Of a DNA stretch of 64,000 nt, positions 21,398 through 46,073 are shown in pieces; position 1 is the first letter of the stretch, and each line of letters starts with the position of its first letter. Below the pieces are notes generated by a model. It did no database searches. It was not told the DNA's origin and worked only from the letters and a program-made list of their open reading frames with translations. A program made the translations under genes and the position numbers. This stretch comes from an uncultured Calditrichaceae bacterium (GTDB lineage: Bacteria > Calditrichota > Calditrichia > RBG-13-44-9): the NCBI GenBank assembly GCA_964617285.1, contig CAZTXJ010000001.1:15237-79236 (forward strand). Direction: 5' to 3'.

Positions 21398-21423
21398 AAA
21401 AAATAAAATCAGGAGAATTAGTC

Positions 21424-21978: not shown

Positions 21979-22070
21979 GATTTTTCGGAATAAACTCATA
22001 CATGGATGGAAAATGACACTGCCAGGAGGAATGATTGGTCTAGCAATTGTGGAATAGACCCGGTACATGT

Positions 22071-22107: not shown

Positions 22108-22182
22108 AAAAACCTTTAATAATTAACCAGGAGCAATAAGGTTATTGACAAAACCAACTACAAAACAAAGGAGGAAAAAGGC

Positions 22183-26913: not shown

Positions 26914-26947
26914 AGTATTTTCTCAGACTTAATTTATCAAATTATAA

Positions 26948-28600: not shown

Positions 28601-28775
28601 CTATCTCTTCTATAACTTATTACAATATTAGAAACATGCTTTTAAATCAGATAAATTTGTGATTTCATGTACAATACAATTTAAACAAATCATATCTTGA
28701 AATACAAGATTATCCTGTAAAATATATAATTGTGATGATTTGGATAGAATTGATATGGTTTGTGGATTTAAAGTG

Positions 28776-29285: not shown

Positions 29286-29324
29286 TAAAGCACCCCAGAT
29301 TTAATAATATTTTTATTTAGAAAC

Positions 29325-30800
29325 TTAACGAGTAATTCGGCGAATTAATTCTCCCTTTTGGTTGTAAATTTCCGCATACAGCGGCATTTCCCCCGGGAGT
29401 GCGTGTGTGGCACAGGCATGACAGGGATCGTAAGCCCGGAAGGCCATTTCCACCTTATTTAAAATGCCATCGTCCACATGACCATCGCGAATTAAACTGC
29501 GCGCTGCTTTATCCACAGACATGGCGATTCTGCCTGCATTATTCTGGGTGGCTACAATTAGATTCGCTTTCTGGATCACACCACGCTCATCGGTTTGATA
29601 GTGATGGAATAGCGTTCCTCTGGGGGCTTCCACACAACCAATTCCTTCTTTTGGGGTCATATCGGGAATAGCGCGAATATGCTTGCTGGTGATTTCGGAA
29701 TCGCTGGCGAGCTCAAGCATTCTTTCGGCAGCGTAAAGCATCTCGACCAGGCGAGCCCAGTGGTTTGCCAGGGTAAAATGGACTGGTTTTCCACCCAGGG
29801 TCTCAAAATAGCGCTTATAATATTCTTCTGCCTGCGGGGTAGCCATGCCCTCGGCGGCATTCAAACGGGCCAGCGGGGCAACACTATATATCCCGGAACC
29901 ATTTCCATCGTTAAATCCGTCCCAGCCAACATTTTTAAGGTAGGGGAATTTTACGTAGCTCCATGGTTCCACATGTTCCAGGATTTGATTTAAATACTCC
30001 TGGGCCGGAAATTTGACAAATTCCTCCCCATTGGGAGCAACTACCCGGATCTTTCCATCATAAAAATTGACCTGATTTTGTTCGTCGACCAATCCCATAT
30101 AATAGGTATGATGGGTATAGGCATCGGAGGTGATCAGATTGAGATATGTGGAATTTGCCAGAACAACGTCATCGAATATCTTAAGGGCAAATAAGGCAAA
30201 ATTAATACCTTCCTTGGCCACGGCTTCGAAACGCTGCCGGACTTCTTCTTTCATTTGTTTGGAAACTCCTCCCGGTAAACCCAGAACCGGATGAATAACC
30301 TTTCCGCCCATCTCGGTGATTAATTCCCTTAACTCCCGGCGCATACCAATCACTTTTTTCCCGACATCCAATCCTACTTTTTGCAGTACGCCTAAAATAT
30401 TGCGATCCGCTTTCGGAGCATCCGGCCCGGTCACAAAATCCGGACCGCCCAGGAAGAAGAAATGCAGGGCATGGTCCTCCAGCATAAAGGTGTTGTAGAC
30501 CAGCTCACGGATTTTTTTCGCGGTCTCTGTCGGTTCCACTTTGTATAAATCATCCAGGGCCTTTGTCCCGGCCATATGATGGGCAGTGGGGCATACCCCG
30601 CAAATTCGTGAAGTGATCTGGGGCATATCCTCTGCCGGACGCCCTTCGCAGAATTTTTCGAATCCCCGCAGTTCCGGGACCTGGAAATAGGCCCGCTCCA
30701 CATTACCGGTGTCATCCAGAAAAATGGATATCTTACCGTGTCCTTCGAGTCTGGTGATTGGATCAATTACAATTTTTTGTGCCATCAGGATTACTCCCAA
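29325..30800 (-). CDS. mvhA: [NiFe] hydrogenase large subunit, group 3 (Mvh/F420-non-reducing type)
   Basis: N-terminal RLEGHG and RICGVCPTAH motifs. C-terminal DPCHACATH, followed by a roughly 25-aa cleavable extension. Confidence 0.85.
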   Translation of the reverse strand: MGVILMAQKIVIDPITRLEGHGKISIFLDDTGNVERAYFQVPELRGFEKFCEGRPAEDMPQITSRICGVCPTAHHMAGTKALDDLYKVEPTETAKKIRELVYNTFMLEDHALHFFFLGGPDFVTGPDAPKADRNILGVLQKVGLDVGKKVIGMRRELRELITEMGGKVIHPVLGLPGGVSKQMKEEVRQRFEAVAKEGINFALFALKIFDDVVLANSTYLNLITSDAYTHHTYYMGLVDEQNQVNFYDGKIRVVAPNGEEFVKFPAQEYLNQILEHVEPWSYVKFPYLKNVGWDGFNDGNGSGIYSVAPLARLNAAEGMATPQAEEYYKRYFETLGGKPVHFTLANHWARLVEMLYAAERMLELASDSEITSKHIRAIPDMTPKEGIGCVEAPRGTLFHHYQTDERGVIQKANLIVATQNNAGRIAMSVDKAARSLIRDGHVDDGILNKVEMAFRAYDPCHACATHALPGEMPLYAEIYNQKGELIRRITR

Positions 30801-30862
30801 TATATCGGTTTTTCATTATTTTTAATGTTAGTTAAAATTTCTCCTGTATCTGTCTTGAACTA

Positions 30863-31858
30863 TTAATCTTTGCTGGATTCCTGAACCGGATTTTGATGAA
30901 AGGTTTTTCGCTTCAAAAGTGAAGCAGGTAACCCGTAACGGTAAAAAGTGCCAACCGGATCGACAAATTTATCAAAAAGTCGCTGAATTGATTCTTCATC
31001 GCTGTAATCCACAATGGAGGCCAGGCCGGAAAGTGCTTTGGCACCCTGATCTTTAACCCGGCTGGTAGGGCCAAAACAACCGGTACAGGGCATATTCCCG
31101 TTAACACACAAAGCTCCGCATCCGCTCCGGGTGGCCGGTCCCATACAAAAAATGCCCTGCGCCAGAAGGCATTTTTCCGGATCGATTTCCACTTCCTGGA
31201 CGCGCTTGAGATCTTTGATCAACAACTTTTCCGGTTTGCTCTGATTCCTATCGCATTCGTCACACAGCGCTTTATCCGGAGACAGCACGGTACCCTTTGG
31301 TGGCAGTTCACCCTTTAAAATGGTTTGAATGGCTTCCAGTAACAACTTCGGGGTAGGTGGGCATCCCGGGAGATAATAGTCTACCTCGACCAGATCATGC
31401 AGATGTTTTACTGTATCAAAAAATTCCGGGAGATGCAAATCATGTCCGTTCATCGATGCATCTTCCAGCGGCACCACCTGATTATTTTCCTGCAGGGAAG
31501 GGACCTCATGGTAGACGCGGTTGAAAATACTTTCTTTGTTCCACAGATTACCCAGCCCCGGTATGCCGCCAAGATGTGCGCAGCTACCAAAAGCAATGAT
31601 CATCTTGGATTTGCGTTCCAGAAGGTAAACCATTTCCTCCTGTTCACCCAGACGGATGGCCCCATTTATGAAAGCGACATCAATTTCTTTATCCTGCATT
31701 TTAGCCACATCTTCTTTTTTGAAATCGAGGGCGACCGGCCAGAAAACAATATCGACTGCTTCAACCACATCCAGAATGTTTTCGGCGAGATCGACCACCG
31801 CTTCCTCACAACCACCGCAACTGGCGCACCAATAAAAAGCAACTTTGGGTTTTGACAT
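30863..31858 (-). CDS. mvhG: [NiFe] hydrogenase small subunit, group 3 (MvhG-like)
   Basis: N-terminal FYWCASCGGCEE proximal-cluster motif. Additional Cys clusters at the C-terminus. Confidence 0.8.
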   Translation of the reverse strand: MSKPKVAFYWCASCGGCEEAVVDLAENILDVVEAVDIVFWPVALDFKKEDVAKMQDKEIDVAFINGAIRLGEQEEMVYLLERKSKMIIAFGSCAHLGGIPGLGNLWNKESIFNRVYHEVPSLQENNQVVPLEDASMNGHDLHLPEFFDTVKHLHDLVEVDYYLPGCPPTPKLLLEAIQTILKGELPPKGTVLSPDKALCDECDRNQSKPEKLLIKDLKRVQEVEIDPEKCLLAQGIFCMGPATRSGCGALCVNGNMPCTGCFGPTSRVKDQGAKALSGLASIVDYSDEESIQRLFDKFVDPVGTFYRYGLPASLLKRKTFHQNPVQESSKD

Positions 31859-31933
31859 TTCGACTTACCTCAATTTATAATTGTCATCCGGTAATCATAT
31901 TTGGTTCACTTACGTAAAACATATGCTCTTTAG

Positions 31934-32395
31934 TTATAAGACAGGTGCTGCTACTGCCTCTGCCTCGCTTTCTACTTCTTCAGTAACCGGAGATGCAGAA
32001 ATTTTTAAAGGACCCAACTCTCTTAATTGATCGACCATTTCGTTGATTACCCGTTGAACTTTATCACCTTCGGAAGCGGAAATCCATTCCAGGCGAAGAC
32101 GCTTTTTTTCGATCCCCATCTGTTCAAGAAGTCTTTGAAGCAGATGAAATCTTCGCAAAGTCTTATAATTACCTTCCTGATAATGGCAATCCCCGGGATG
32201 GCAACCACCGATCAATACGCCATCGGCTCCCCGGTGGAAAGCATCCAGGATAAACTGGGGATCAATTCTGCCAGAGCACATGATCCGAACAATGCGCACA
32301 TTGGGAGCGTAACTCATCCGAGCAGTACCCGCCAGGTCTGCTGCGGTGTAAGTGCACCAGGTGCAGAAAAATGCAACTACTTTTGGTTCGTACAT
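31934..32395 (-). CDS. mvhD: MvhD-like hydrogenase delta subunit (2Fe-2S)
   Basis: KVVAFFCTWCTYTAADLAG...MCSGR...GCHPGDCHY, the MvhD/FlpD Cys pattern. Confidence 0.8.
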   Translation of the reverse strand: MYEPKVVAFFCTWCTYTAADLAGTARMSYAPNVRIVRIMCSGRIDPQFILDAFHRGADGVLIGGCHPGDCHYQEGNYKTLRRFHLLQRLLEQMGIEKKRLRLEWISASEGDKVQRVINEMVDQLRELGPLKISASPVTEEVESEAEAVAAPVL

Positions 32396-32466
32396 GGATC
32401 TTTATCCTTTTTGTAATTGAACTGTCTGTCATTCTTAAATTTATTCATTCAACCTAACTATTCCAG

Positions 32467-35400
32467 CTAAACCATAAGTCCTTCTATTTCGGAGAATATC
32501 TGTTCGTCCAGATAGAGATGCTGGCGTGCAGCGCCACTCGGACAGGCGGAGACACAAGTGCCGCATCCCTTGCAAAGTACCTCGTTAATAACCGATATGG
32601 CCTTCTCCTTGTCGAAGCTGATGGCAGTGTAAGGACAGAGAGAGACGCAGGTTTGACAACCGGAACAGTACTCTTCTTCGATCCAGGCGGTATTTGGTTC
32701 CAGCTCCACCTCGCCGCGATCGATAAGAGCAAGGGCTTCCGCGGCGGCGGCACCGGCCTGGGCTACGGTATCCGGAATGTCTTTTGGCGATTGGCAAGCA
32801 CCGGCCAGGAAAATTCCGTCTGTGGCAGTAGAAATCGGTGCTAATTTGGGATGTCTCTCCAGGAAAAATCCCTCATTACTGCAGGAGATATTGAAGATTC
32901 TCCGGATTTCATCCGCATCGGGTTGTGGTTCCAGACCGGTTGAAAGGATAACCATATCCACTGGTATTCGTCTTACCATACCAATCAGTGTATCCTCAAC
33001 CCGAATCACCAGTTTGCCCTCCTCGGAAGGATCCAGGGGTACGTCACTGACTTCGGCAACCCGTCCCCGGATCATGTGCGCCCCTTCTTCCAGTATCCGA
33101 TCATAGAACTCTTCATATCCTTTACCAAAGGTTCGCATATCAATATAGAAGTTATAGACCTCGGCATTTGTTCGCTCGTGCATCAGATGGGCAAATTTAA
33201 GTGAGTACATACAGCAAACCCGGGAGCAGTACCGGTTATGATTTTTGTCGCGCGATCCCACACAATGAATTATTCCCACTGACTTGGGTTTTCCTCCATC
33301 CCGTAAAATAATTTCACCACCGGTGGGTCCGGCAGCATTGATCAGCCTTTCCACTTCCAAGCTGGTGTAGACATTGGCCAGTTTTTTATAACCATAATGC
33401 GGGATTTTTTCGGCATCGAAAGATTTAAATCCAGTGGCGATGATTATGGAGCCGACATCGATCTCTTTTATCTCATCCTTTTGGTGATAATCGATAGCCT
33501 TTGCTTCGCAGGTATTAACACATAACTCACAGTCGCAGCAACCGGCGCAGGCCAGACAACGATTGGCTTCTTCGATGGCCATCTCTTCCGTGTAGCCCTG
33601 GTGTACCTCGTCGAAGGACTTCCTTCTCTCAATCTCAATGGCCGGAATTTCAACCCGCCATTTTACCGGAATACCCTCGGTATCAAATTCAAAACTTGGT
33701 TCGAAAGGACCTTCCAGTTCCCGACCCTCGCTCATATCCTCACTTTTGAGATAACGATCAATAGAGATGGCAGCTTTCCGACCGGCAAACATGGCATTGA
33801 CCACTACATCAGGACCCGATACACAATCTCCTCCGGCAAAGATGCCTTCGATATTTGTTTCCAGAGTGACCGGGTCGGCTGCAAATGTATCCCATTGTGT
33901 TACAGTCAGGCCCAGCCGGTCCTTAAGTGTCTCCAGTTCCGGCATCTGACCGATGGTGACGATGACTGCGTCGCAAGGCAGGATGAACTCGGATCCCGGG
34001 ACAGGTACCGGTCGTCGGCGACCACTTTCGTCCGGATGGCCTAATCGGGTGCGAATGCATTCCAGTCCCGCTACATGTGTTGAGCCCATAAACTGACGGG
34101 GCATGGCATTGAAATAAATGCGGATACCTTCTTTTTCTGCTTCCCGGATTTCCAGTTCGTCAGCCGGCATTTCATTTCTGCCCCGGCGGTAAACAATGGT
34201 AACCTCTTCCGCATCTGTGCGCAGGGCGGTCCTTGCCGCATCGATGGCCGAATTACCACCGCCAATGACCAGAACCTTTTTGCCCAGTTTCACTTTCTCA
34301 CCACTGTTCACTCGCTTGAGAAAATCAATTCCACCCCAGATTCCATTCAGGATTTCATTGGGAATATTTAAGCTCCGCTCCTTACCACAGCCAATGGCCA
34401 GGTATACTGCCTGATATTTTTCTTTGAGCTGTTTTAAGGAAATGTCTCGTCCAATCTTGGTATTTAATTTTATGTTTACACCGGTTTCCTCAATACGACT
34501 GATTTCTTCATTCAGGATGTGACGGGGTAACCGGAATGCGGGAATACCCATCCATAACATTCCACCCGGCATCTGATTCGCTTCATATATCTGTACCTGA
34601 TAACCCCGATGTCGTAATTCGTAAGCACACATTAATCCTGAAGGACCGGATCCAACAATCGCCACCTTTTCTTTTCTCTGAATCGCCGGATCTGGTTTTG
34701 GCAAGCTGAATTGGCCAACATGGTCTGTGACAAAGCGTTTAAGTGCCGGAACATTAATGGCGTCATCAACCTTATTTCGCGAGCACATAGACATACACGG
34801 ATGCGAGCACACCCGGCCACAAATTGCCGGAAGGGGATTATCCCGGAGAATAACCTCCAGTGCCTCTTCAAACCGGCCCCCGGCGATCAATTTAATATAT
34901 GCCTGTGCATTCTGATGTAAGCTGCAGGTTGCCTGGCAGGGTGGCATCCCTTTACGGGAAATGGTATAGGTGTTCGGTACCGATTGAGGAAATGGCCGGT
35001 AAATGGCTTTGCGGGTTCCCAGGCCTTCGTCAAATTCGGAGGGTATATCCACCGGACAGACCTTCACACATTCACCACAGCCGGTGCATGCTTCTTCGTT
35101 TATAAATCTAGCTTTCTTTTTAACTTTCACCTTAAAGTTGCCAACATAACCATCCACGCCTTCCACTTCAGAATAAGTCATGAGTTCTATATTTGGATGT
35201 GCGGCTACTTGGGTCATTTTTGGGGTCAGGATACAAGCCGAGCAATCCAGGGTGGGAAAAGTTTTATCGAATTTTGCCATATGGCCACCGATGGATGGCT
35301 CCCGTTCGATCAGATAAACCTTTTTCCCGGCATCTGCCATCGTAAGAGCGGCTTGTATTCCAGCGATTCCTCCACCAATGACCATGGTATCCGGATGCAC

Positions 35401-35841
35401 CGGCACTGATCGTTTCTTAAGGGGCTCGTGAAAGTATACCCGCTTAACGCCTGCTGAAATCAGGGCTTTTGCTTTATCGGTCGCCTGGACTTTATCCAGG
35501 GTTACCCAGGACACATGTTCCCGGATATTTGCCATCTGGAAGAAATAGGGATTTTCACCACCTTCCCGGACAGCCCTGCGGAAGGTCACTTCATGCATCA
35601 GGGGCGAACAGGATGCAACCAGCACCCGGTTCACACCTAATTCTTTAATATCCTTTTTGATTAAATCCTGGCCGGGATCGGAACACATAAATTTATACTC
35701 CCGGGCAATTTCGACATGGGGAAGTGTCTGGGCGAATTCCACCACTTCGGATATATCAACCTTGCCAGCGATGTTTGCTCCACAGTGACAAATGTAGACG
35801 CCAATTTTGATATCACCATTGTTGTTCATTTTAGTCTCCAT
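32467..35841 (-). CDS. hdrA: HdrA-like heterodisulfide reductase flavoprotein with an inserted complete GltD/NfnB-like NAD(P)H-FAD module (1124 aa)
   Basis: HdrA N-terminal Cys domain. First Rossmann fold VIGGGIAGIQAAL, inserted ferredoxin CTGCGECVKVCP, HdrA core (CVGSRD, CSRVCC) and C-terminal 2x4Fe-4S. Between these, at about 33740-34950, lies a GltD-like module: CGRVCSHPC...C Fe-S, VAIVGSGPSGLMCAYEL FAD, VLVIGGGNSAIDAA NAD(P)H and GGDCVSGPD. Confidence 0.75.
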   Translation of the reverse strand: METKMNNNGDIKIGVYICHCGANIAGKVDISEVVEFAQTLPHVEIAREYKFMCSDPGQDLIKKDIKELGVNRVLVASCSPLMHEVTFRRAVREGGENPYFFQMANIREHVSWVTLDKVQATDKAKALISAGVKRVYFHEPLKKRSVPVHPDTMVIGGGIAGIQAALTMADAGKKVYLIEREPSIGGHMAKFDKTFPTLDCSACILTPKMTQVAAHPNIELMTYSEVEGVDGYVGNFKVKVKKKARFINEEACTGCGECVKVCPVDIPSEFDEGLGTRKAIYRPFPQSVPNTYTISRKGMPPCQATCSLHQNAQAYIKLIAGGRFEEALEVILRDNPLPAICGRVCSHPCMSMCSRNKVDDAINVPALKRFVTDHVGQFSLPKPDPAIQRKEKVAIVGSGPSGLMCAYELRHRGYQVQIYEANQMPGGMLWMGIPAFRLPRHILNEEISRIEETGVNIKLNTKIGRDISLKQLKEKYQAVYLAIGCGKERSLNIPNEILNGIWGGIDFLKRVNSGEKVKLGKKVLVIGGGNSAIDAARTALRTDAEEVTIVYRRGRNEMPADELEIREAEKEGIRIYFNAMPRQFMGSTHVAGLECIRTRLGHPDESGRRRPVPVPGSEFILPCDAVIVTIGQMPELETLKDRLGLTVTQWDTFAADPVTLETNIEGIFAGGDCVSGPDVVVNAMFAGRKAAISIDRYLKSEDMSEGRELEGPFEPSFEFDTEGIPVKWRVEIPAIEIERRKSFDEVHQGYTEEMAIEEANRCLACAGCCDCELCVNTCEAKAIDYHQKDEIKEIDVGSIIIATGFKSFDAEKIPHYGYKKLANVYTSLEVERLINAAGPTGGEIILRDGGKPKSVGIIHCVGSRDKNHNRYCSRVCCMYSLKFAHLMHERTNAEVYNFYIDMRTFGKGYEEFYDRILEEGAHMIRGRVAEVSDVPLDPSEEGKLVIRVEDTLIGMVRRIPVDMVILSTGLEPQPDADEIRRIFNISCSNEGFFLERHPKLAPISTATDGIFLAGACQSPKDIPDTVAQAGAAAAEALALIDRGEVELEPNTAWIEEEYCSGCQTCVSLCPYTAISFDKEKAISVINEVLCKGCGTCVSACPSGAARQHLYLDEQIFSEIEGLMV

Positions 35842-35868
35842 GAAAGTTTTTCATAGAACGTTCCCAGT

Positions 35869-36762
35869 TTAAATATTTGTCTGTATTTCCGGGACTTCGA
35901 TGCTCTTCATCAGATCCTTTGGGAAAATGATGGATCTTTTTATTCCCAGTTTCTTTGCCGGAATTCCAAAGGCAAGACCGAGAATTTGTGTGAAATAAAG
36001 AATAGGTATTTCTTTAATGTCGTTATATTTCTTCAAAATTTTCCGCTGATAAGCTTCCAGATTAAACTGACAGAGTGGACATACTGTAACGATGCAGTTG
36101 GCCCCGCGGCGTTGTGCTTCGGAGAGTAAAATATAATTTATCCGTAATCCGACCTCCTCGATGGTACCGGTTAAGGATCCACCGCAACACCTGGTTTTCA
36201 CCGGATAATCCACCGCTTCGGCGCCAAGATATTCGAAGATCTGGTCCATGGTGTCCGGAAAACAGGGATGGTCAAATTCCTGGTAAGGTCGGACGATTTG
36301 GCATCCGTAGTATGGTGCAATTTTAAATGATCTCAATGGTATCCGAACCCGGTTTTGGATTTTTTCAAATCCTACGTCATGCAGCAGCACTTCCAGCGGA
36401 TGACGTACCCGGACTGTACCGCGGTAAACCAGATCGGCTGCGGTAAGAGCTTTATCCACCTTTTCCCGGATTTCCGGATATTGCTTTATATACTTCATGG
36501 TTTTTAACAAAACCAGGTAACAGGCACTACAGGGTGCAACCAGATCGAAACCCATTTCTTCAGCGATAGCTAAATTTCTCGCAGAAACCGCAAAGGACAT
36601 ATTTTCATCGACAGACATATACATCGTCGCACCACAACAATTCCAGTCGGGCAATTCCAGTAATTTCAGGTCCAGGGCCTCAAAAACCGCCAGCAAAGAT
36701 TCTTCGTATTGTTTTGCCGTTCCCTTAACAGAACATCCCGGATAATATGAGTAGGTTTTCAT
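35869..36762 (-). CDS. hdrB: Heterodisulfide reductase subunit B-like (two CCG domains)
   Basis: CCGATMYM and CCGGSL motifs with flanking Cys, the duplicated Cx..CCG..CxxC pattern. Confidence 0.8.
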   Translation of the reverse strand: MKTYSYYPGCSVKGTAKQYEESLLAVFEALDLKLLELPDWNCCGATMYMSVDENMSFAVSARNLAIAEEMGFDLVAPCSACYLVLLKTMKYIKQYPEIREKVDKALTAADLVYRGTVRVRHPLEVLLHDVGFEKIQNRVRIPLRSFKIAPYYGCQIVRPYQEFDHPCFPDTMDQIFEYLGAEAVDYPVKTRCCGGSLTGTIEEVGLRINYILLSEAQRRGANCIVTVCPLCQFNLEAYQRKILKKYNDIKEIPILYFTQILGLAFGIPAKKLGIKRSIIFPKDLMKSIEVPEIQTNI

Positions 36763-36764
36763 GA

Positions 36765-37337
36765 TCAGGCCTCCAGTGCTTTGAATATTTTCCGGATTTG
36801 CTTAAGGTTTTTAATTTTTTCAGTACCGAAGCGCATTCGCCCGGTTCTCAGCAGGTTTGCTCCCAATGGTATCATGGCAATCAGACTGGAAAGCCGTGTT
36901 TTCATGGCAAGTTTTACCACAAGCCAGCTTTCGGTAATCCGCCCGTTTTTCCGGATGGTATTGGTGAAGAGGCGGGCTAAAATGGGGATGCTAAATTTTT
37001 TACTGGGATATATTCCCTCCTCGATCGCCCGTCTTTTAAAGGCATACATCACATCAGTAATTTTAATATTTCTGGGGCAACTCACCAGACAGGCATAACA
37101 GGAGGAACATAGCCAGATTGTGAAACTGCTTAGAACCTCTTCCTTAAATCCGGCATCAGCCATAGCGATCAGTCGTCGGGGAGTATTATCCATGTAAATA
37201 CTCATGGGACAAATACTGCTGCAGGTTCCACACTGAATGCACTCCCGGATATTTTCTCCACCGGGAACACTCGAGATCCATTGTGGAAAAGAATGATCGA
37301 GCTCATTCTCGTATTTTACTTTTCTTTGAACTTCCAT
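36765..37337 (-). CDS. hdrC: Heterodisulfide reductase subunit C-like (2x4Fe-4S)
   Basis: CIQCGTCSSICP and CSSCYACLVSCP. The start is taken at MEVQRKV, which has a GGAGGG ribosome-binding site; the tracked ORF extends to 37367 without one. Confidence 0.75.
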   Translation of the reverse strand: MEVQRKVKYENELDHSFPQWISSVPGGENIRECIQCGTCSSICPMSIYMDNTPRRLIAMADAGFKEEVLSSFTIWLCSSCYACLVSCPRNIKITDVMYAFKRRAIEEGIYPSKKFSIPILARLFTNTIRKNGRITESWLVVKLAMKTRLSSLIAMIPLGANLLRTGRMRFGTEKIKNLKQIRKIFKALEA

Positions 37338-37383
37338 TGAAAACCCTCCAATGGGTATTTTGGTCATTTATTGATTCTAATAA

Positions 37384-37401
37384 TGGCAAATCGTATGCCC
37401 G
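37384..37401 (-). promoter_or_regulatory. Candidate sigma-54 (-24/-12) promoter for the hdrCBA-mvhDGA operon
   Basis: Minus-strand reading cgGGCATacgatTTGCCa. GG and GC have consensus spacing, TTGC is exact, and there are three mismatches to TGGCACG. Predicted transcription start is near 37374, about 37 nt before the hdrC start. A divergent NtrC-type regulator is adjacent. Confidence 0.4.
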
Positions 37402-37700
37402 TAATTTTTGTTAAGATGGTTTAATGAACCATTTATCACAAACTGCTATAATTACTAGAGGTTATGGAGAAAGGTGTAAAAATCATCTAATAGTGTACTA
37501 TTGAAAGGGGTGTCTAAAGTATACGGTTAAGCGGGTAAAAAGTAAACTCTCATATCATGATAAGTGTTAATTATATTGGAATTATTAAAAAATATTTTCT
37601 CTTCCGTGGAAATGTTTTAGTGAAAATAAAGAAAAAATCTTAATTGTTGAGAAATTAAACATTATATAATATCTTAGATAGAGAAAATTTTTACAATAAC

Positions 37701-39365
37701 ATGCGTATCAGAGCTAAATCACACATTGGTGCCTTTACAAGATCATTAAGTTTTAAACTCCTCCTGATCCTGTTAACAATCATGTTTTTATTTTTCGCCT
37801 TCTATGTAGTTCTTTATTCAACTATGCAAAAGCGAATCTATGAGCATACAATTGAATTGGGAGCTTATCGGAACAGTGATATTATTAAGAATGCCCTCTA
37901 TCGACTGATGCTCAAAAATGAACGGGAGGAGCTTTTTAATACCATAAAGATTATTGGTAATGAACCCGGTCTTGAAGATATTCGGATTTACAATAAAAAG
38001 GGAGAGATTACTTACTCGACAAATGAATCCGAAACCGGAACAGTGGTAGACATGAGAGCCGAAGCCTGCTATGCCTGTCATGCAGCTAATGAACCTATAC
38101 AATCACTGCAGACCGAGGATAAAACCAGAATATATGAAGGGCCCAAGGGTTATCGGATTATGGGAATGATAAATCCCATCAGAAATGCGCCTGAATGCAG
38201 TAATCAGGTCTGCCATGCTCATAATCCCGAACAGACAATTTTGGGTGTTCTTGATGTCAGGATGTCACTCAACGAACTGGATCAGGCGGTTTTCCAGACT
38301 AGGGTTGCAGCAATTTCTCTCTCCTTTGGCCTGACAATTTTAGCCCTGGTCTTATTTTCCATCATGGTATATATCATCATTTATCGACCGATAAAAACGC
38401 TTCAGGCCGGTACAGTCAGGCTAGCGGTTGGTGATCTCGATTATCGAATTGACATGAAGCGCAGGGATGAGTTAGGAATGCTGGCTCAGTCATTTAATAA
38501 TATGGCAGAGAATCTGAAAAAGGCATATCAGGAATTAAAAGACTGGTCCAACAAACTGGAAAAACGAGTGGATGAAAAAACCGATCAATTGGAGAAGATG
38601 CATAAGGGGCTAATTCATGTGGAGAAGATGGCCTCACTCGGTAAAATGGCCGCTTCCGTAGCCCACGAGTTGAATAATCCCCTGGCTGGTATCGTTACTT
38701 ATTCGAAATTAATTCAGAAAAGAATCCGGAAAAACGGGACCTCACCAGAAGATCTAAAGAAAATTATCAATGAGTTGGAACTGATCAGTTCGGAATCCAT
38801 GCGTTGCGGAAATATCGTCCGGAATCTTCTTGCCTTCGCCCGGGAAACCTCGGCAAACTTCCAGGAATTTAATATTGAAGAGATCATAAATCGTGGATTG
38901 GAAATCCTGAGTCATCATATGCAATTGGCGGGGGTGGAATTTGAAAAAAACATACGGGTAACATCCAAGAAATTGTTTTGCGATGCCGAACAAATGGTGC
39001 AGGCGCTGATTGCTTTATTCGTTAATGCAGTGGAAGCCATGCCGGATGGAGGAACTTTAAATATCACTGTGGAAGACATCCCGGAGAAACCTTCCTGGAT
39101 GAGAATAAAGATTGCCGATACTGGTATAGGAATTTCAGCGGAAACCCTGGACAAGATTTTCGAACCATTTTTTACCACCAAGGAGGAAAAGAAGGGCGTT
39201 GGTCTGGGTTTGCCGGTGGTCTATGGCATTATTCAGCGACACCAGGGCAAAATTCGGGTGGAATCTGAAAAAGGTAAAGGCAGTACCTTTATCATTGAAT
39301 TACCCCGGCAGCAAACCGGGTTAGTGGAAGAAAGAGAAAGGGGTGATGAAGATGAAACCGTATAA
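37701..39365 (+). CDS. Sensor histidine kinase with periplasmic domain carrying c-type haem motifs, HAMP, HisKA and HATPase
   Basis: TM1, a roughly 165-aa periplasmic region containing CYACH (CxxCH) and CSNQVCH (Cx4CH), TM2, HAMP, then H-box AHELNNPL and N/G boxes. Confidence 0.8.
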
Positions 39366-40692
39366 AATCTTAATCGTGGATGATGAGTTATCGGTGCGAA
39401 CTTCCCTGAAGGAATGGTTTCTTGAGGAAGGATTTACTGTGGAAACTGCAGAAAGCGGGGAAGATGCTCTGAATAAGATGCATACCGGTCCCTACGATTT
39501 AATCCTGCTGGATATTAAGATGCCTGGTATGGATGGCATCACCCTGCAAAAGAAGATCAAGGAAATTGATGAGGATGCCATCATCATTATCATGACCGCT
39601 TATGCCTCGGTGGATACCGCGGTTGAAGCACTTAAATTGGGTGCTTTCGATTATGTGACCAAGCCATTCGATCCCGATGACCTCTCCCAGCTCATCAGAA
39701 ATGCACTGAAACAAAAAGAATTGACTTCAGAGAATGTTCAGTTAAAGGAGAAAATTTCCGAACTATCCGGAGTGGACGATATTATTGGCCAGAGTGAAGA
39801 AATGAAACGAGTTTTTGAGATGGTTGATACTGTGGCGGAAACGGATTCTACCGTCCTGATCCGGGGTGAAAGTGGAACCGGAAAGGAACTTATCGCCAGG
39901 GCAATTCATAGCCGGAGTAAGCGAAGGTATTTTCCGATTGTGGCAGTGAATTGTGGGGCCATACCGGAAACATTATTGGAGAGCGAACTTTTTGGTCACG
40001 AGAAAGGGGCTTTTACCGGCGCCCAATACCGGCGCAAGGGAAAACTGGAACTGGCAAATGGCGGGACACTCTTCCTGGATGAAATCGGGGATATTTCATT
40101 CAAAATGCAGATAGATTTATTGCGCGTCCTCGAGGGCAAAAGATTTACCCGATTAGGTGGATCGGATGAAATCCAAGTTGATTTTCGGCTTATTTGTGCT
40201 ACCAATAAGAATTTGGAAAAATTAGTGGAGGAAGAAAAATTCCGGGAGGATCTATACTACCGGATTAATGTATTTTCTATTTTTCTGCCACCGTTAAGAA
40301 AAAGAAAAAGCGATATCATTATGCTGGCCAACCACTTTATCCAGAAATATGCAAGATCTATGGGTAAGCCGAAGAAGTCGATAGCTTCTAATGTGCAGGA
40401 AATGATGCTGGAATACTCCTGGCCGGGAAATGTGCGAGAACTGGAAAATGCCATTGAGCGAGCTATGGTCATTGGTAAGGGACCGGAAATTACCATTGAA
40501 GATCTGCCCCTTCATATAAACACAACTGAAAAATCGAATTCCGGTAAGGTGAAGCTATCCGATCTGGAGAAAGATCATATTCTGCGCATATTGGAAGAGA
40601 CCGGTGGAAATGTGACCAAAGCGGCCAATCTTTTGGGTATTGATCGGGTGACTTTATATAACAAAATGAAAAAATACGGTGTCAAGCGTTAA
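39343..40692 (+). CDS. Sigma-54-dependent response regulator (NtrC family)
   Basis: REC, AAA+ (GESGTGKE, GAFTGA) and Fis HTH. Start may be at [12 protein letters not shown]. Overlaps the kinase stop. Confidence 0.9.
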   Translation: MMKMKPYKILIVDDELSVRTSLKEWFLEEGFTVETAESGEDALNKMHTGPYDLILLDIKMPGMDGITLQKKIKEIDEDAIIIIMTAYASVDTAVEALKLGAFDYVTKPFDPDDLSQLIRNALKQKELTSENVQLKEKISELSGVDDIIGQSEEMKRVFEMVDTVAETDSTVLIRGESGTGKELIARAIHSRSKRRYFPIVAVNCGAIPETLLESELFGHEKGAFTGAQYRRKGKLELANGGTLFLDEIGDISFKMQIDLLRVLEGKRFTRLGGSDEIQVDFRLICATNKNLEKLVEEEKFREDLYYRINVFSIFLPPLRKRKSDIIMLANHFIQKYARSMGKPKKSIASNVQEMMLEYSWPGNVRELENAIERAMVIGKGPEITIEDLPLHINTTEKSNSGKVKLSDLEKDHILRILEETGGNVTKAANLLGIDRVTLYNKMKKYGVKR

Positions 40693-41235
40693 GTGAATGA
40701 AAAAATATATATTGCATTTATCAATGGTCATTTCCCGCCCTTCTGGAAAAATCTGACCGCCGATCTGCGTCGATGCCTGCCTTATCCCTTCGAACATTTT
40801 GTTGTCAATGTGGACTTAAAGCTATTCTATTCGATGGATCGTAATCAGTATCATTCTACTCTCTTGCTTGCCCAACTTCTGAAATTCTTGCCTGAGGATG
40901 GAGAAAAGATCGTGGGTGTGACTGATGTCGATATCTTTATTCCGATTTTGACTTTTCTGTTTGGTGAGGCCCAGTTGGCTGGTAAAGGCGCCCTGGTTTC
41001 AACCTATCGCCTGAACAACCACTTCTATGGCCTGCCGAAAGATGATGAACTGCTTTACCAGCGGGCGATGAAGGAAATTCTGCATGAACTGGGTCACACT
41101 TTTGGCCTCATCCACTGCCCGGATTATGAATGTGTGATGAATTCTTCGACCTATGTGGAAAATATTGATCTGAAAAGAAATCGATTTTGTCTTGGCTGCC
41201 AGAAAAAATTAGGCGTCACTTGCCGTGAAGGGTGA
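40693..41235 (+). CDS. amzA: Archaemetzincin (peptidase family M54)
   Basis: HELGHTFGLIHCPDYECVMNSS-x16-CLGCQ is the full archaemetzincin signature. The gene starts the nucleotide after the regulator stop. Confidence 0.75.
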   Translation: MNEKIYIAFINGHFPPFWKNLTADLRRCLPYPFEHFVVNVDLKLFYSMDRNQYHSTLLLAQLLKFLPEDGEKIVGVTDVDIFIPILTFLFGEAQLAGKGALVSTYRLNNHFYGLPKDDELLYQRAMKEILHELGHTFGLIHCPDYECVMNSSTYVENIDLKRNRFCLGCQKKLGVTCREG

Positions 41236-41245: not shown

Positions 41246-42034
41246 CTAAGTAAAGATTTGCTTCAGCAACCTTTCAAAGTTATCCGTACCGATTATTTTT
41301 TCCAAATCTACCTGAAGATGCCCACCATCCGCCAAAGTTTCGCCAATGTTAGCCGGAATGGATTCTTGCAAGCTATCCCACAGCAGATTTTTTAATAAAT
41401 TCACTTTTTTGATGTAAAACTGCAGTCCGGCCAATTCATTACATTTATTCTGTATTTGCTGACCGATTCCTTTTTTAGACATCTTAAATAAATATTTATC
41501 TTCTTCAATCACATGCTCGAATCCCGTTACGGTAAACTCGGGATTGATTTCTGAAATTTCACCTCCAATGGGTGCATGAAGAGGCAGGGTTTTTCCTTTG
41601 CGGAATATCCATGCCATTAATTGGCCCTTATGAAAGGAATCTCCCTCTTCCGGTAAAATGATCCGGTCCACCGGAGAGATCGTTTTGACTACCAGTTTAT
41701 CCAGACCAATGAGAATAGCATCCTCTGTTTCCTTCTGACACCAGAAATAATTGGATTGATAACAATGGTCCAGATAAAATCTGCATCCGGCAAAAAGTGA
41801 AGAAAAATACTGTTGAATCCAGTTGTTTATCTTTTCATCTTCCCGACTAGCTTCCTTTTTCTGATACTCCGGTTGGGATGGATTCTCTCTGTTCTCATGC
41901 ACCAAAATTCCCTGCATCACTTTATCGAATTCACATGTTTCACATTCAAAATTATGATCGCAGAGTTTATAGTTAACAATTCCGGCAGACATCCAGATAC
42001 ATTTTAAGCTTGCTTTATTTGTATGGGATCTCAT
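41246..42034 (-). CDS. GcvH-like (lipoyl-carrier fold) protein with N-terminal Cys4 cluster, cytoplasmic paralog
   Basis: C-x12-C-x5-C-x2-C at the N-terminus. Central K...HAPIGGEISEINPEF region like the GcvH lipoyl hairpin. The C-terminal extension contains a LADGG motif shared with two paralogs. Confidence 0.45.
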   Translation of the reverse strand: MRSHTNKASLKCIWMSAGIVNYKLCDHNFECETCEFDKVMQGILVHENRENPSQPEYQKKEASREDEKINNWIQQYFSSLFAGCRFYLDHCYQSNYFWCQKETEDAILIGLDKLVVKTISPVDRIILPEEGDSFHKGQLMAWIFRKGKTLPLHAPIGGEISEINPEFTVTGFEHVIEEDKYLFKMSKKGIGQQIQNKCNELAGLQFYIKKVNLLKNLLWDSLQESIPANIGETLADGGHLQVDLEKIIGTDNFERLLKQIFT

Positions 42035-42132
42035 TTTTTCACCATTTTGCTTATTGATTCGTTATGCTCGATTCAGTTCCATGGATCCTTTTGTCTTATT
42101 CCTGACTGGCCACAAAAATGTGTGGCCAGTGT

Positions 42133-42825
42133 TTATTTGGTTAACAAAAAATCTGTAGCAATATCTTCCCAATTATCGGGTGATATTTCCCGGGCAAATC
42201 CGGAAACCGGAATACCACCATCCTGCATCACCAAACCCAGTTGGGGTGATATTTTTTCTCGCAGTTTCAAAATAACATTCTCTAACCAGGCCACTGCCAC
42301 CGGGCCGGATAATAAATTGGTCAGATTCGGTTTTAAATTGTCCACTTCTACTTCCATTAGCCAGCCCCGTTCGTACGGATCCTTGGTTATTAGATCTGTT
42401 GACTGTAATGCTTCCTGATTGATTTTAAGGACCTTGCCCGAAACAGGGGAGAGCATATCGATTTTTTTATCATCAAATTTTAGTTTCCATCCCTTATTTC
42501 CCTGTTCCAGAATCGTTCCTCTATCCGGTAACACAATTGCCGATGGCTTCCCTAGTAATTTTTGGGCAAAGTCGTCAATTCCGATGCGGACAACGTTCCG
42601 ATTCTGTGGCAAAACCCAACTATGCCCCTGATGATAATATCTTCCTTTCATTAAATGGAACCAATCGTGACTGGTAACCGGCTGCCGTGCGAGTTTGCTT
42701 GCTTGAGCATTGGTTGACCGGTTCATCCAAACCCAGTATGCAACAAAGAGTATCAGAAATCCAATAACCAGGATATATTCGATGCCTTTAGTGGCAAACA
42801 TATCTATATAACCGAAATTTTCCAT
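42133..42825 (-). CDS. Membrane-anchored GcvH-like (glycine cleavage H-protein-like) protein
   Basis: N-terminal TM. SPVSGKVLKINQEALQSTDLITKDPYERGWLMEVEV closely parallels E. coli GcvH [36 protein letters not shown]. C-terminal MQDGG extension. Start set at MENFGY (ribosome-binding site AGAGGA) rather than the longer tracked ORF. Confidence 0.5.
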   Translation of the reverse strand: MENFGYIDMFATKGIEYILVIGFLILFVAYWVWMNRSTNAQASKLARQPVTSHDWFHLMKGRYYHQGHSWVLPQNRNVVRIGIDDFAQKLLGKPSAIVLPDRGTILEQGNKGWKLKFDDKKIDMLSPVSGKVLKINQEALQSTDLITKDPYERGWLMEVEVDNLKPNLTNLLSGPVAVAWLENVILKLREKISPQLGLVMQDGGIPVSGFAREISPDNWEDIATDFLLTK

Positions 42826-44105
42826 TCTTCGTTTTCCTCTTCTATTTTTGTGGTTTGCGGTTGTCTTTTGGTTTTTTCTTCGGACCGAGCCCATTCCGGC
42901 GACTCTTTCAGGATCGGCATGCGGTTGACAATCCAGCGGAATACCAGAATTTCGCCAAAAATTATCATTAACGTGACCATAATTTCCATCCAGGTGGGAT
43001 AATATTTAACCGCGGATTGCCAGTTAAAAGCAATCAGTGAGGTATTCAATCTGTTCATCACGATTCCCACCAGGGTAAGAATTGCCGCAATTTTAATGAG
43101 TCCGAAATTTCTCCGGCGGACACTTTCCGTGAATAATATACCGGGAAGCAATACAAAGCCCAGAATCTCGGTAAGAAAGAGGTAACCCAAGGGTGTATTC
43201 AGGTAGGAATAGTGCTGGCCATGAAAGAAAACCAGTATCTTGAGAAACAGATAAACGAACATGGTACCGGCACAGATTTTTGCCAGACTTAATAAAATGC
43301 CATAATGCGCCGCATGATTTTGAGGACTAATCTGATGTCGGAATACTCTTTGACTTATGCTGCCCTCGAATATGACCATTGATAACCCGGCAAAAATACT
43401 GGATACAAAAAACAAGACTGGAATAAATTCGGTGTACCATAAAGGATGAATTTTACTTTTCGCGATCAGAAATAAGGCGCCCAAGGCGGATTGATGAAGT
43501 GTGGATAGGGTGATACCGAAGATAACCACCCCGACGGTAAGGGTACCCAGGATCTTACGGATTCTTTTCCATCCCAGCCACTCAGCCACAGCCGGTGAAA
43601 ATTCAATGAATTCTGCCATCATATACAACATAAAGTGCCAGGCCACCAGAAACATCACCGAACTGACTCCGAATGAATTACCGATAATCGGATTGACAAT
43701 ATTCCAGGGACGCCCCAAATCGAAAACCAGTGCCCCGGCATAAAAAGCATAGGCCAGAAAACCATTTAGCACAGTTACCCGAATAATTGGGTGATATTTC
43801 TTTATTCTCATAATGTAAACCATAAAGCATAGAACGTAAGCACCACCGGCAAATGCTACACCGGTAATAACATCAAAGCTGATCCAGAGTCCCCAGGGAT
43901 ATTCCTGGGATAAATTCGTAACCGAACCCAATCCCTTGGCAAAACGAATAACCAGTATCACGATACCGGTCATAATGATCACAAAGGATAAAATATTGAA
44001 AGGAGTGAGAATCGGTCCTTTGGGTTTTAACTCACTGAGAAAGAATTTAATAAATTTTTTGAATTCCGATTTGACCAATGAAACGGTTCCTGTTTTATTA
44101 TCCAT
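42804..44105 (-). CDS. NrfD/PsrC/HybB family polytopic membrane quinone-interacting subunit
   Basis: About ten TM helices and the YPWGLWISFDVITGVAFAGGAY family motif. Start taken at MDNKTG, where ATGGATAA overlaps the upstream stop. Confidence 0.7.
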   Translation of the reverse strand: MDNKTGTVSLVKSEFKKFIKFFLSELKPKGPILTPFNILSFVIIMTGIVILVIRFAKGLGSVTNLSQEYPWGLWISFDVITGVAFAGGAYVLCFMVYIMRIKKYHPIIRVTVLNGFLAYAFYAGALVFDLGRPWNIVNPIIGNSFGVSSVMFLVAWHFMLYMMAEFIEFSPAVAEWLGWKRIRKILGTLTVGVVIFGITLSTLHQSALGALFLIAKSKIHPLWYTEFIPVLFFVSSIFAGLSMVIFEGSISQRVFRHQISPQNHAAHYGILLSLAKICAGTMFVYLFLKILVFFHGQHYSYLNTPLGYLFLTEILGFVLLPGILFTESVRRRNFGLIKIAAILTLVGIVMNRLNTSLIAFNWQSAVKYYPTWMEIMVTLMIIFGEILVFRWIVNRMPILKESPEWARSEEKTKRQPQTTKIEEENEEWKISVI

Positions 44106-44967
44106 GGAGATCCTCACTTTCTTCTCTCGTTTCATTTTCCTTGGCAGAGTTATGAAGCGCCAGTAAAAATGCCGGCCATAAAGTCAGAATAACAGGTACA
44201 CTATAAAGGAAACCTTTGGTGTATTCTGCGGGTGGTTTTTCTCCAACTGCATTTTTGAAACCAATCTGTTCAAAAGGGACGGCGGAAAGATAAAGCCATC
44301 CGGTACCGCCAACTTCATGTTCGCCGTAAATATGATGAACATAATCATCCGGATTCTGATAAATACGTTGTCTGGCAATTTCCAGAATTTCGCGACGGTC
44401 ACCGAAAATGATTGCTTCGGCCGGACAATTTTCAACGCAAGCTGGGATTTCACCATCCTTCAAACGGGCCCAGCACATGGTACACTTTTGAATTTTTGGC
44501 ATAGGACTATTATACTCGAATTGCGGTATACCAAACGGACAGGCAATCATACAATAGCGACAGCCCATGCATTTGTTCTCCCGCCAGATTACCGGACCCT
44601 CTTTGGTTTTATACATTGCCTTGGTGAGACAGGCTGAGGCGCATGCCGGTTGATTGCAGTGCATACATTGTCTCTTAACAAATACCTCGCCTTTATCTGT
44701 ATCAAACCGGTTAATCACTGAATATTGAGTCAGAGAAGGTTTACGTTCTTTTTCCAAAACCGAATCATCCAGGTCAGGTTCAGGTAAATTATTTTGCATG
44801 GCACAGGCCTCTTCGCAGCTTCGACAGCCCACACAACGCGTTGTATCCACTAAAATAGCTTTAAACTCAGTGGATGCCGGGACGTTTTCTGCTTTCAAAG
44901 GAGAACTTTTTATCAGAGCTGTTCCGGTGGCAACGCCAAATGCCTTCAAAAAGTCACGTCTATCCAT
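44098..44967 (-). CDS. Tat-exported 4x[4Fe-4S] ferredoxin subunit (NrfC/PsrB/HybA-like) with C-terminal TM anchor
   Basis: RRDFLK twin-arginine signal, four Cys cluster motifs and a C-terminal hydrophobic helix. Confidence 0.75.
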   Translation of the reverse strand: MDRRDFLKAFGVATGTALIKSSPLKAENVPASTEFKAILVDTTRCVGCRSCEEACAMQNNLPEPDLDDSVLEKERKPSLTQYSVINRFDTDKGEVFVKRQCMHCNQPACASACLTKAMYKTKEGPVIWRENKCMGCRYCMIACPFGIPQFEYNSPMPKIQKCTMCWARLKDGEIPACVENCPAEAIIFGDRREILEIARQRIYQNPDDYVHHIYGEHEVGGTGWLYLSAVPFEQIGFKNAVGEKPPAEYTKGFLYSVPVILTLWPAFLLALHNSAKENETREESEDLHG

Positions 44968-45029
44968 TTAAAATTCCTTTCTGTTTTCCATAAAAGAGTT
45001 CAGAAAATTAAGAGAGCGGATTTGTCCTC

Positions 45030-45713
45030 TTAATTAAGAAAACTGTGTTCAAATTCCTTCCAAAATTTCTCATCAAATTTGGACATGATTCCGATCGGCA
45101 AATCGCCACCATCTGCCATTGTTGATCCGAGTTCGGTTCGGGGCAGATTTTTCATGAAGAAGCTTTTCACTTCCTCATACCTGGTGTTTATCCAGTTTTT
45201 GGTTTTGTCTGCGATAATCCATCCGGGAATTTCTGAGGATACTTTTTCGGGTTTAATGGCATAAATCCAATTCTGGCTCAATTTGTCCCAGCCGCTGATT
45301 TCCTGAAACTCGGGATTGATGGCGACAATGGAGCCGTGGACCGGAGATTTGAGATCCAGTAATTTTGATCCCTTTCGTACTTTTAATAGTGAACCACCTT
45401 TACCAATTTTCTGACCTTCGGGAACTGTTTCAATCTTATCCGGATTACCAACTAAACCCAATAGCATCGGTTGAATTCCCAACAGAAGGTTGCCATTATC
45501 CAGAATTTTGGACCAGGTGAAACCAGGCTGCAGAAAGACGCCATTTAATATTCCCGGCATTGTTTTGGAAATAAAAAGATTTTCGGGTTCAGCCTGTTCG
45601 ACTGTAGCCCTTTTCCGCCTTCTCTGGATAAGATAGTCGATTGTAATGAAAAGTACGACGCTGAGTACAACAAGTAAGAATACCATATTTATTCCTTTCT
45701 TTTTTTGATTCAA
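45030..45713 (-). CDS. Membrane-anchored GcvH-like protein (paralog 1)
   Basis: N-terminal TM flanked by basic residues. KSPVHGSIVAINPEF...WIYAIKP GcvH-like hairpin and tail. C-terminal MADGG motif. Confidence 0.45.
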   Translation of the reverse strand: MNQKKKGINMVFLLVVLSVVLFITIDYLIQRRRKRATVEQAEPENLFISKTMPGILNGVFLQPGFTWSKILDNGNLLLGIQPMLLGLVGNPDKIETVPEGQKIGKGGSLLKVRKGSKLLDLKSPVHGSIVAINPEFQEISGWDKLSQNWIYAIKPEKVSSEIPGWIIADKTKNWINTRYEEVKSFFMKNLPRTELGSTMADGGDLPIGIMSKFDEKFWKEFEHSFLN

Positions 45714-46073
45714 ATGGTATTGCTGCTGTACGAATTACAAAATAAATGCCAAGGCACATATTACTCGCTTAAAGTTATAATAATAAATGAGTTGGATGGG
45801 ATTGGTAAATTACCAGGGGCAAGACGAAATCGTTGAATATATTTACGGTTTAATTTTAGGATTAGCAGAAAACCGTGTTAAGTATTTAAAAATTAGCAAT
45901 GTAAATAGTGTAAATATTTTCAACGATGAATATTGAAATAATTTACAGTTCAATTTTTAGCTTGTAGAATAATCTAACAGTTTATCCGAATAGAATATCA
46001 GGAATGCTTATTCTTATGGATTTTTAAGGGGGAATAATTGAAGCAGATCTAAATTGACCAGTTTGTATTCAGA

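Follow-up and report, generated by a model that had tools for sequence, protein, structure and literature searches.

A predicted two-haem Cache sensor histidine kinase of an uncultured Calditrichaceae bacterium and its probable link to a conserved HmcBC-like/GcvH-like operon

The DNA analysed here is a 64,000-nt stretch from an uncultured Calditrichaceae bacterium, referred to as the window. Its gene at positions 37701-39365 on the forward strand encodes a sensor histidine kinase of 554 amino acids, to which all residue numbers refer. Judged by homology and motif content, the protein belongs to the two-haem branch of the known haem-c Cache sensors. We propose that this two-haem sCache kinase senses redox and that its partner RR1, a sigma-54-dependent response regulator, drives an operon for HmcBC-like and GcvH-like proteins; for this overall reading, we estimate a probability of roughly 0.55. 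The kinase gene has the following features (TM, transmembrane segment; ORF, open reading frame; AF2, AlphaFold 2).

37701..39365 (+): sensor histidine kinase with TM1, a predicted two-haem periplasmic sCache domain, TM2, HAMP, HisKA, and HATPase_c (ORF and translation, Pfam, hydropathy, full-length AF2 model)
37821..38303 (+): periplasmic sensor domain, residues ~41-201, single Cache/PDC fold (AF2 models, Foldseek, PF21563 matches)
37908..37910 (+): Met70 codon, in the N-terminal sensor helix; putative distal ligand of the site-2 haem (140/140 conservation, alignment with Met60 of GSU0935/3b42)
38067..38081 (+): haem-attachment motif 1, C123-Y-A-C126-H127, family consensus VDxxAEACYxCH; the additional site, between β2 and β3 (conservation, AF2 models)
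38196..38222 (+): haem-attachment motif 2, C166-SNQV-C171-H172-A-H174, at the position of the single GSU0935 haem site (conservation, variable spacing, profile alignment)

Hydropathy analysis places the two TM segments at residues ~18-40 and 202-228. The second is followed directly by a HAMP domain (229-273, E = 1e-15) and then by HisKA (313-383, E = 2e-12) and HATPase_c (428-537, E = 8e-26), all identified with Pfam. H322, N442, D473, G475, G477, F487, F490, G501, and G503 are each kept in at least 90% of the family. With its N, G1, F, and G2 boxes present, the protein classifies as a HisKA-type (class I) membrane histidine kinase, in which H322 is the predicted phospho-acceptor. Since the N-terminus carries five Lys/Arg residues and HAMP stands directly after TM2, the sensor loop (residues ~41-201) is assigned to the periplasm, where an original prediction made from the letters of the window had also put the haem motifs.

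This loop contains four cysteines in all, and every one of them lies within the two motifs. CYACH and CSNQVCH, which had been read between TM1 and TM2, are exact to the residue (123-127 and 166-172). Among 140 aligned sensor-domain homologues, M70, C123, C126, H127, and C171 are invariant (140/140), while C166 is kept in 138, H172 in 136, and H174 in 129. The homologues thus retain the Cys and His residues of the motifs (136-140/140), and M70 and H174 are the only further conserved potential haem ligands in the loop. On these counts, the conservation of the motifs is far beyond chance. The spacing of site 2 varies: most members have Cx4CH, P0137 and P0162 have Cx3CH, and P0152 and P0153 have CxxCH. 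A variable Cys spacing at a fixed C...CH order is typical of what haem-c attachment sites tolerate and would be unexpected for a structural metal site. A word-index search with the sensor region gave 16 relatives, which keep AEACYxCH and CxxxxCHAH where these are covered; the fragment P0009 among them reads CYASH at motif 1. As the window also encodes a di-haem cytochrome c (CNDCH, CFACH; 22183-22896), the organism matures c-type haem. We infer that each sensor domain carries two covalent haems.

The fold of the sensor domain was predicted with AF2 for the apo-protein, as the sensor alone (mean predicted local distance difference test score, pLDDT, of 79) and as the full-length kinase with 78 sequences (mean pLDDT 88.9). 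In both models, a long N-terminal helix precedes an antiparallel sheet of five strands, and the C-terminal helix continues into TM2. Motif 1 is located between β2 and β3 and motif 2 between β4 and β5, and the confidence is lowest in these two loops. The top Foldseek matches in the PDB are the extracellular domains of WalK, KinD, DctB, and CitA (E = 1e-7 to 1e-3); 3B42 and 3B47, the structures of the haem-c sensors GSU0935 and GSU0582 of Geobacter sulfurreducens, were not within the top 50. The Pfam family of these sensors, PF21563, is matched by 59 of the 78 full-length family members at E ≤ 0.05 (best E = 4.7e-10), and several relatives in the databases carry a precomputed PF21563 assignment.

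A profile-to-3b42 alignment, in which chain numbering + 34 gives the published GSU0935 numbering, places C166/C171/H172 on Cys140/Cys143/His144 and M70 on Met60. In GSU0935, the former three constitute the haem site and Met60 is the distal ligand (PMC8396549). From this alignment of motif 2 and Met70, motif 2 is taken as the ancestral haem site. Motif 1 is, by position, the added second site, and H174 is most probably the distal ligand of its haem. The claim of haem-c motifs in the original prediction has therefore held up, the motifs being real, periplasmic, and conserved, in a domain that is homologous to proven haem-c sensors by the family matches and the residue alignment.

Single-sequence phmmer of the sensor domain against the PDB returned noise only, and the window protein had no match to PF11845 (Tll0287/DUF3365) at E ≤ 0.05. 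An assignment to class III or multihaem cytochrome c3 was rejected because of the Cache fold and the lack of any match to a cytochrome family of Pfam or NCBIfam; the resemblance to c3 is limited to the combination of CxxCH with Cx4CH. A profile search of 1.84 billion cluster representatives gave 2,921 matches at E ≤ 1e-3 and 482 at E ≤ 1e-30. In the databases, the relatives bear generic names such as "ATP-binding protein" or "NtrC family sensor kinase."

For the genomic context, GTDB species genomes were scanned with a degenerate pattern, which yielded at least 590 genomic stretches encoding confirmed relatives. The locus analyses rest on the best 80 of these at least 590 relatives, and the window proteins were placed in the loci by tblastn. 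The closest genome among the matches listed is a metagenome-assembled genome (MAG) of an uncultured Calditrichaceae bacterium with 97% identity. The best 80 relatives are from Calditrichota, KSB1, Gemmatimonadota, Bacteroidota/Ignavibacteriota, Acidobacteriota, and Desulfobacterota. The features downstream of the kinase in the window are given here (HTH, helix-turn-helix; FeS, iron-sulfur; Tat, twin-arginine translocation; AMZ, archaemetzincin).

39343..40692 (+): RR1, sigma-54-dependent response regulator with receiver, AAA+ domain with GAFTGA, AAA lid, and HTH_8 (Pfam, NCBIfam, synteny)
40693..41235 (+): archaemetzincin-family Zn metalloprotease (AMZ) with HExxHxxGxxH and a Cys4 site (NCBIfam NF033823, sequence, synteny)
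41246..45713 (-): conserved five-gene operon, probable RR1 target (Pfam, NCBIfam, topology, linkage in 49/51 loci), with the five genes below
45030-45713 (-): GcvH-like protein with an N-terminal TM (first gene)
44098-44967 (-): Tat-exported HmcB/HybA-like FeS protein
42804-44135 (-): 10-TM HmcC/HybB NrfD-like protein
42133-42894 (-): GcvH-like protein with an HmcD-like TM
41246-42034 (-): GcvH-like protein with an N-terminal Cys motif
45736..45751 (-): sigma-54-type -24/-12 promoter TGGCATTTATTTTGTA, preceding the first of the five operon genes (sole exact TGGCAY-N5-TTGWA match in the window)
45829..45947 (no strand assigned): three copies of TGTAAATAT(A/T)TTCAA(CG), at 45829-45847, 45909-45927, and 45933-45947; candidate enhancer sites (three against 0.37 expected)

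RR1 matches Response_reg (2e-34), Sigma54_activat (3e-73), and HTH_8 (9e-17), and its GAFTGA motif is at residue 222. With a receiver, an AAA+ domain with GAFTGA, and a Fis-type HTH, it is classified by domain content as an NtrC-family sigma-54-dependent regulator; it reached no NCBIfam equivalog cutoff. Its start overlaps the end of the kinase gene, the likely start codon being ATG 39346. The proposed pairing of the kinase with a sigma-54 regulator is borne out in that the two genes are translationally coupled and RR1 carries GAFTGA. The start codon of the AMZ gene (NF033823, 156.7 bits against a cutoff of 145) comes directly after the RR1 stop codon. Of the 76 loci with a sufficiently long flank, 73 encode the response regulator and the archaemetzincin directly after the kinase. 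Both flanks were available for 51 loci, and in 49 of these, from at least six phyla, HmcB-like and HmcC-like genes adjoin the unit. Most often they precede it immediately and in the same orientation; the Calditrichota loci have them downstream, in convergent orientation.

Some further observations concern these neighbours. The GcvH-like protein encoded at 41246-42034 (-) has no TM segment and carries C12-x12-C25-x5-C31-x2-C34 (KCIWMSAGIVNYKLCDHNFECETC), which suggests a metal or FeS site. All three GcvH-like proteins presumably lack the Lys at the canonical lipoylation position, judging from an alignment to E. coli GcvH. In four loci (L006 8230-11533, L010 291-3199, L012 2103-5265, and L013 839-4182), two tandem paralogous two-haem kinases are encoded upstream of one sigma-54 regulator. 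Literature searches for the combination of archaemetzincin, sigma-54, and kinase and for GcvH/NrfD/HybA clusters found nothing relevant.

The promoter region of the five-gene operon points to it as the target of RR1. Scanning for canonical sigma-54 sites (TGGCAC-N5-TTGCW, ≤ 2 mismatches) gave no enrichment in the window and no hit in the intergenic region between hdrC and the kinase gene; it took a relaxed -12 element to reveal the conserved promoter. The same element, TGGCAC/T-N5-TTGAA, is conserved in L004, L007, L011, L012, L013, and L014, at a distance of 62-77 nt before the orthologous gene and amid otherwise unalignable AT-rich DNA. The copies of TGTAAATAT(A/T)TTCAA(CG) are inverted repeats (I2, I4) located 80-200 bp upstream of the -24/-12 element. 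Across 82 loci, this motif is nearly confined to the region upstream of the orthologous operon, where L007, L011, L012, L013, and L014 have it. Canonical sigma-54 promoters also occur in other phyla, either 65-123 nt ahead of the first gene of the cluster (at least 7 loci) or a short distance ahead of the kinase gene; the background rate is 3.5% per 420-bp window. Because candidate enhancers and a -24/-12 element are here combined in the classic layout, the HmcBC-like/GcvH-like operon is the best candidate for the RR1 target. On this evidence, the target is most likely this operon and not the adjacent hydrogenase operon. As an aside, TTGAA/TTGTA at -12 in place of TTGC(A/T) may be a lineage-specific variant of the sigma-54 -12 element in Calditrichota and KSB1.

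Signal transduction might then proceed as follows. Haem A would be attached to C166/C171 with H172 as the proximal and Met70 as the distal ligand, which is the ancestral site shared with GSU0582 and GSU0935. Haem B would be attached to C123/C126 with H127 as the proximal ligand, and H174 most probably completes its coordination. As H174 is two residues after H172, the two haems would lie side by side. A change of oxidation state, together with a redox-linked change at the labile Met70 as in GSU0935, would shift the helix leading into TM1. Passed on through TM2 and HAMP, this movement would alter autophosphorylation at H322, and the phosphoryl group would be transferred to the translationally coupled sigma-54 activator RR1. 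Phosphorylated RR1 would bind the TGTAAATAT(A/T)TTCAA repeats and activate the -24/-12 promoter of the operon (45713 to 41246, -). In this way, the system would adjust a quinone-linked module for periplasmic electron transfer to the redox state of the periplasm or the quinone pool.

Several points weigh against this proposal. The match of the window protein to PF21563 is at 16.8 bits (E = 0.0088), below the gathering cutoff of 27, and the profile search of PDB sequences reaches 3b42 weakly (E = 0.014). We nevertheless find the homology to GSU0935 convincing because four functional residues coincide and because the PF21563 matches at the family level are independent of this alignment. H174 was assigned to the motif-1 haem by elimination only, and haem binding in the two-haem subfamily is a prediction from sequence. 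The -12 element is TTGTA/TTGAA, compared with TTGC in the canonical promoter. RR1 is a candidate for binding the repeats, and other activators are possible. Finally, signalling-linked haem-Cache domains have been described as sensors of nitric oxide (NO) rather than of redox (2026 preprint, PMC12889525).

The last point leads to the strongest alternative, in which the anatomy is the same and the signal is NO or carbon monoxide (CO). The gas would displace the labile Met70 of haem A, the second haem would tune or stabilise the domain, and the output would be a nitrosative-stress or NO-dependent respiratory response. In its favour, both gases reversibly displace Met60 in GSU0582 and GSU0935 in vitro (PMC8396549), M70 aligns with Met60, and the kinetics of NO binding are sensor-like in a signalling-linked sCache_haem protein (PMC12889525). 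The window also contains an NO-type gene cluster (17130-24230), but this is 13 kb off and is unlinked to the kinase in any other locus. The conserved neighbours are instead a quinone-linked FeS/NrfD module, not NO-detoxifying enzymes. Moreover, sixth-ligand candidates are conserved for both haems, and a second haem that is probably bis-His suits an electron relay better. We regard gas sensing as rather unlikely. The quinone module as conserved context and the additional haem, probably bis-His, favour redox over gas. The original prediction had left the choice between redox and gas open; that the domain senses one or the other is a reasonable inference, while the sequence data do not separate redox from NO/CO.

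The cluster at 17130-24230 (+) encodes an Rrf2-family regulator, a Fer4_5 membrane FeS protein, a DUF438-hemerythrin-PAS_10 protein, a DUF1858/DUF2249 protein, a methyltransferase, a hemerythrin, the di-haem cytochrome c, and a COX1-family oxidase resembling NO reductase. Such a set is typical of NO response and detoxification. A linkage of the kinase to this cluster, or to cytochrome/COX1 genes, was considered and dropped, as these genes are not conserved beside the kinase.

A bolder reading takes the conserved genes as a previously undescribed eight-gene module that recurs in Calditrichota, KSB1, Gemmatimonadota, Bacteroidota/Ignavibacteriota, Acidobacteriota, and other phyla and comprises the HmcB-like and HmcC-like proteins, three GcvH-like proteins that are presumably non-lipoylated, the two-haem kinase, the sigma-54 regulator, and the archaemetzincin. 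The HmcBC-like module would do without a catalytic partner because the haem domain of the kinase is itself its periplasmic partner. With the FeS subunit setting the redox state of the sensor haems, the system would be a direct reporter of the menaquinone pool, and the archaemetzincin would be a conserved post-translational output or reset step. We hold this version to be unlikely.

Quite unlikely, in our estimate, is that the kinase and RR1 control the divergent hdr-mvh operon in response to the H2-linked redox state, as the original prediction had suggested. The features that bear on this are listed below.

25567..37367 (-): variable block outside the conserved system, with hdrC-hdrB-hdrA-mvhD-mvhG-mvhA, a maturation protease, and the HK2 and RR2 genes
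26948-28600 (-): HK2, a kinase with 5 TM and PAS
25567-26913 (-): sigma-54 response regulator RR2, 45% identical to RR1
37384..37399 (-): weak sigma-54-like element GGGCATACGATTTGCC, 3 mismatches but an intact GG/GC core, ~35 nt before the probable hdrC start

The kinase gene (37701-39365, +) and hdrC (36765-37367, -) are indeed divergent and separated by a gap of 333 bp, and GGGCATACGATTTGCC lies upstream of hdrC. In addition, an HdrA-like gene is found a few kb downstream of a related two-haem kinase gene in L052 and L054, both from Desulfobacterota. The adjacency is, however, lineage-specific. It occurs only in the same-species MAG (L003) and is absent from L002, L004, L011, and L014, in which an adenine glycosylase gene is located directly before the kinase. 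In L009, the genes for an adenine glycosylase and a DNA-alkylation repair protein are followed by decayed hdr remnants, first 70 aa of hdrB and then hdrC with a frameshift, and these by an intact kinase-regulator-AMZ unit. In the window, the same two repair genes are at 24292-25583, and a block of ~12 kb separates them from the kinase. With HK2 and RR2 at its 3' end, the hdr-mvh block carries its own sigma-54 two-component system and, from this comparison of loci, comes and goes as a unit.

The candidate promoter is weak. GGGCATACGATTTGCC has 3 mismatches, is shared with the same-species L003 alone while L009 does not conserve it, and lacks significance by itself; the upstream region of hdrC in L009 is too divergent for an alignment that would test it. 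The TGTAAATAT(A/T)TTCAA(CG) motif of the conserved operon is absent from the intergenic region between hdrC and the kinase. The kinase of L052 also differs, as it has two extra PAS domains and no adjacent NtrC-type response regulator, and we regard the Hdr-linked two-haem kinases of L052 and L054 as a lead, not as support. The hdr-mvh operon may well be sigma-54-dependent, with HK2/RR2 as more economical regulators than the kinase and RR1. Control of hdr-mvh by RR1 is thus not supported, and the kinase should not be assumed to be a regulator of the Hdr-Mvh hydrogenase, which corrects a tempting annotation error.

A few details of this block were recorded. The start of hdrC is probably M11 (ATG 37337, with GGAGG as the ribosome-binding site) and not the first ATG at 37367. 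Just upstream of GGGCATACGATTTGCC is a perfect palindrome, ATGGTTTAATGAACCAT (37416-37432), which could be a regulator or IHF site. HdrA (32467-35841, -; 1124 aa) is HdrA2-like and interrupted by a GltD/NfnB-like region with NAD(P)-binding, FAD, and Fer4_20 parts. This architecture suggests an NAD(P)H-linked Hdr-Mvh variant. A homologue of 1128 aa with 54% identity is encoded in L052. In that locus, from a Desulfobacterota MAG, the genes at 9944-18248 encode, in order, the two-haem Cache kinase with its two additional PAS domains, an RR-PAS-kinase, a universal stress protein, a single-domain response regulator, and this HdrA-like protein. The ORF of the hydrogenase maturation protease (~28782-29300, -), just after mvhA, contains a LGLGNPVLGDDGIG motif; upstream of the conserved motif it lacks any ATG, GTG, or TTG start, which kept it off the list of ORFs of at least 100 aa, and it may use a rare start codon.

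That the Cys/His motifs bind a metal (Zn, Fe, or Cu) or form redox-active disulfides without haem would agree with the two motif loops having the lowest AF2 confidence in the apo-models and with the predicted nature of haem binding in the subfamily, but it is most improbable given the strict C-x(n)-C-H order with the His right after the second Cys in 140 sequences, a spacing range that is exactly the one known for haem-c sites, and the positional match to the crystallographic haem site and distal Met of GSU0935 along with the PF21563 matches of the family.

With regard to significance, the recognition that covalent haem is a family trait of extracytoplasmic Cache sensors is recent, and studies have dealt with single-haem examples alone. 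The kinase represents a large, unannotated two-haem branch, as seen from the 2,921 cluster representatives and the at least 590 genomic stretches. Its linkage in multiple phyla to a sigma-54 regulator, an archaemetzincin, and an orphan quinone-linked FeS/NrfD module makes it a concrete, testable system, which could show how anaerobes sense the redox state of the periplasm or the quinone pool.

Haem-c PAS-like sensors have been reported from Geobacter, according to PMC3831638 (citing Londer 2006 and Pokkuluri 2008). A 2026 preprint reclassified them as "sCache_heme," with covalent haem as a family trait (PMC12889525). GSU0582 and GSU0935 are methyl-accepting chemotaxis proteins (MCPs) of G. sulfurreducens (PDB 3B47 and 3B42; PF21563, Mcp40H-20_sensor). 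They share with the kinase a periplasmic domain between two TM segments followed by HAMP, the Cache/PDC fold, the haem-c site in the loop before the last β-strand, and the distal Met on the N-terminal helix, and the alignment is residue for residue. There are also differences. The kinase has two haem sites, whereas the Geobacter proteins have one; its ancestral site is Cx4CH-x-H instead of CxxCH; and its output is a histidine kinase with a sigma-54 regulator instead of an MCP.

GSU0591 and GSU0599 of G. sulfurreducens and Adeh_2011 and Adeh_3383 of Anaeromyxobacter dehalogenans are GSU0935-like sensors with an additional haem motif and a CX2-4CH signature (PMC3831638, PMC8396549). By this published description, they have two haem motifs like the kinase. 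Two-motif relatives are thus already listed in the literature, uncharacterised as to ligands, signal, and targets.

The five-gene operon resembles the HmcBC, HybAB, and NrfCD modules, with the same Tat-exported four-cluster FeS protein with a C-terminal anchor and the same 10-TM NrfD-family protein. The best NCBIfam matches, HmcB (354.6 bits) and HmcC (421.8 bits), are below the equivalog cutoffs of 420 and 550, respectively. Unlike those modules, the cluster contains no cytochrome, hydrogenase, or other catalytic partner and has three GcvH-like proteins instead.

GSU0599 is annotated as a two-component system protein with two haem motifs (PMC8396549) and, going by locus number, should adjoin GSU0598. 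The latter is BccR, a sigma-54 regulator that induces the inner-membrane quinone oxidoreductase CbcBA as the redox potential falls (10.1101/2021.04.15.440034). The BccR target is the b/c-type cytochrome pair CbcBA, whereas the putative target of RR1 comprises HmcB/HmcC-like FeS/NrfD and GcvH-like proteins; an archaemetzincin is present here and not there, and a cognate kinase of BccR has not been demonstrated. In both cases, a regulator with receiver, AAA+, and HTH domains drives, or would drive, a quinone-linked operon. By analogy, BccR would be the closest functional precedent, with the same logic as proposed here for the two-haem kinase and RR1.

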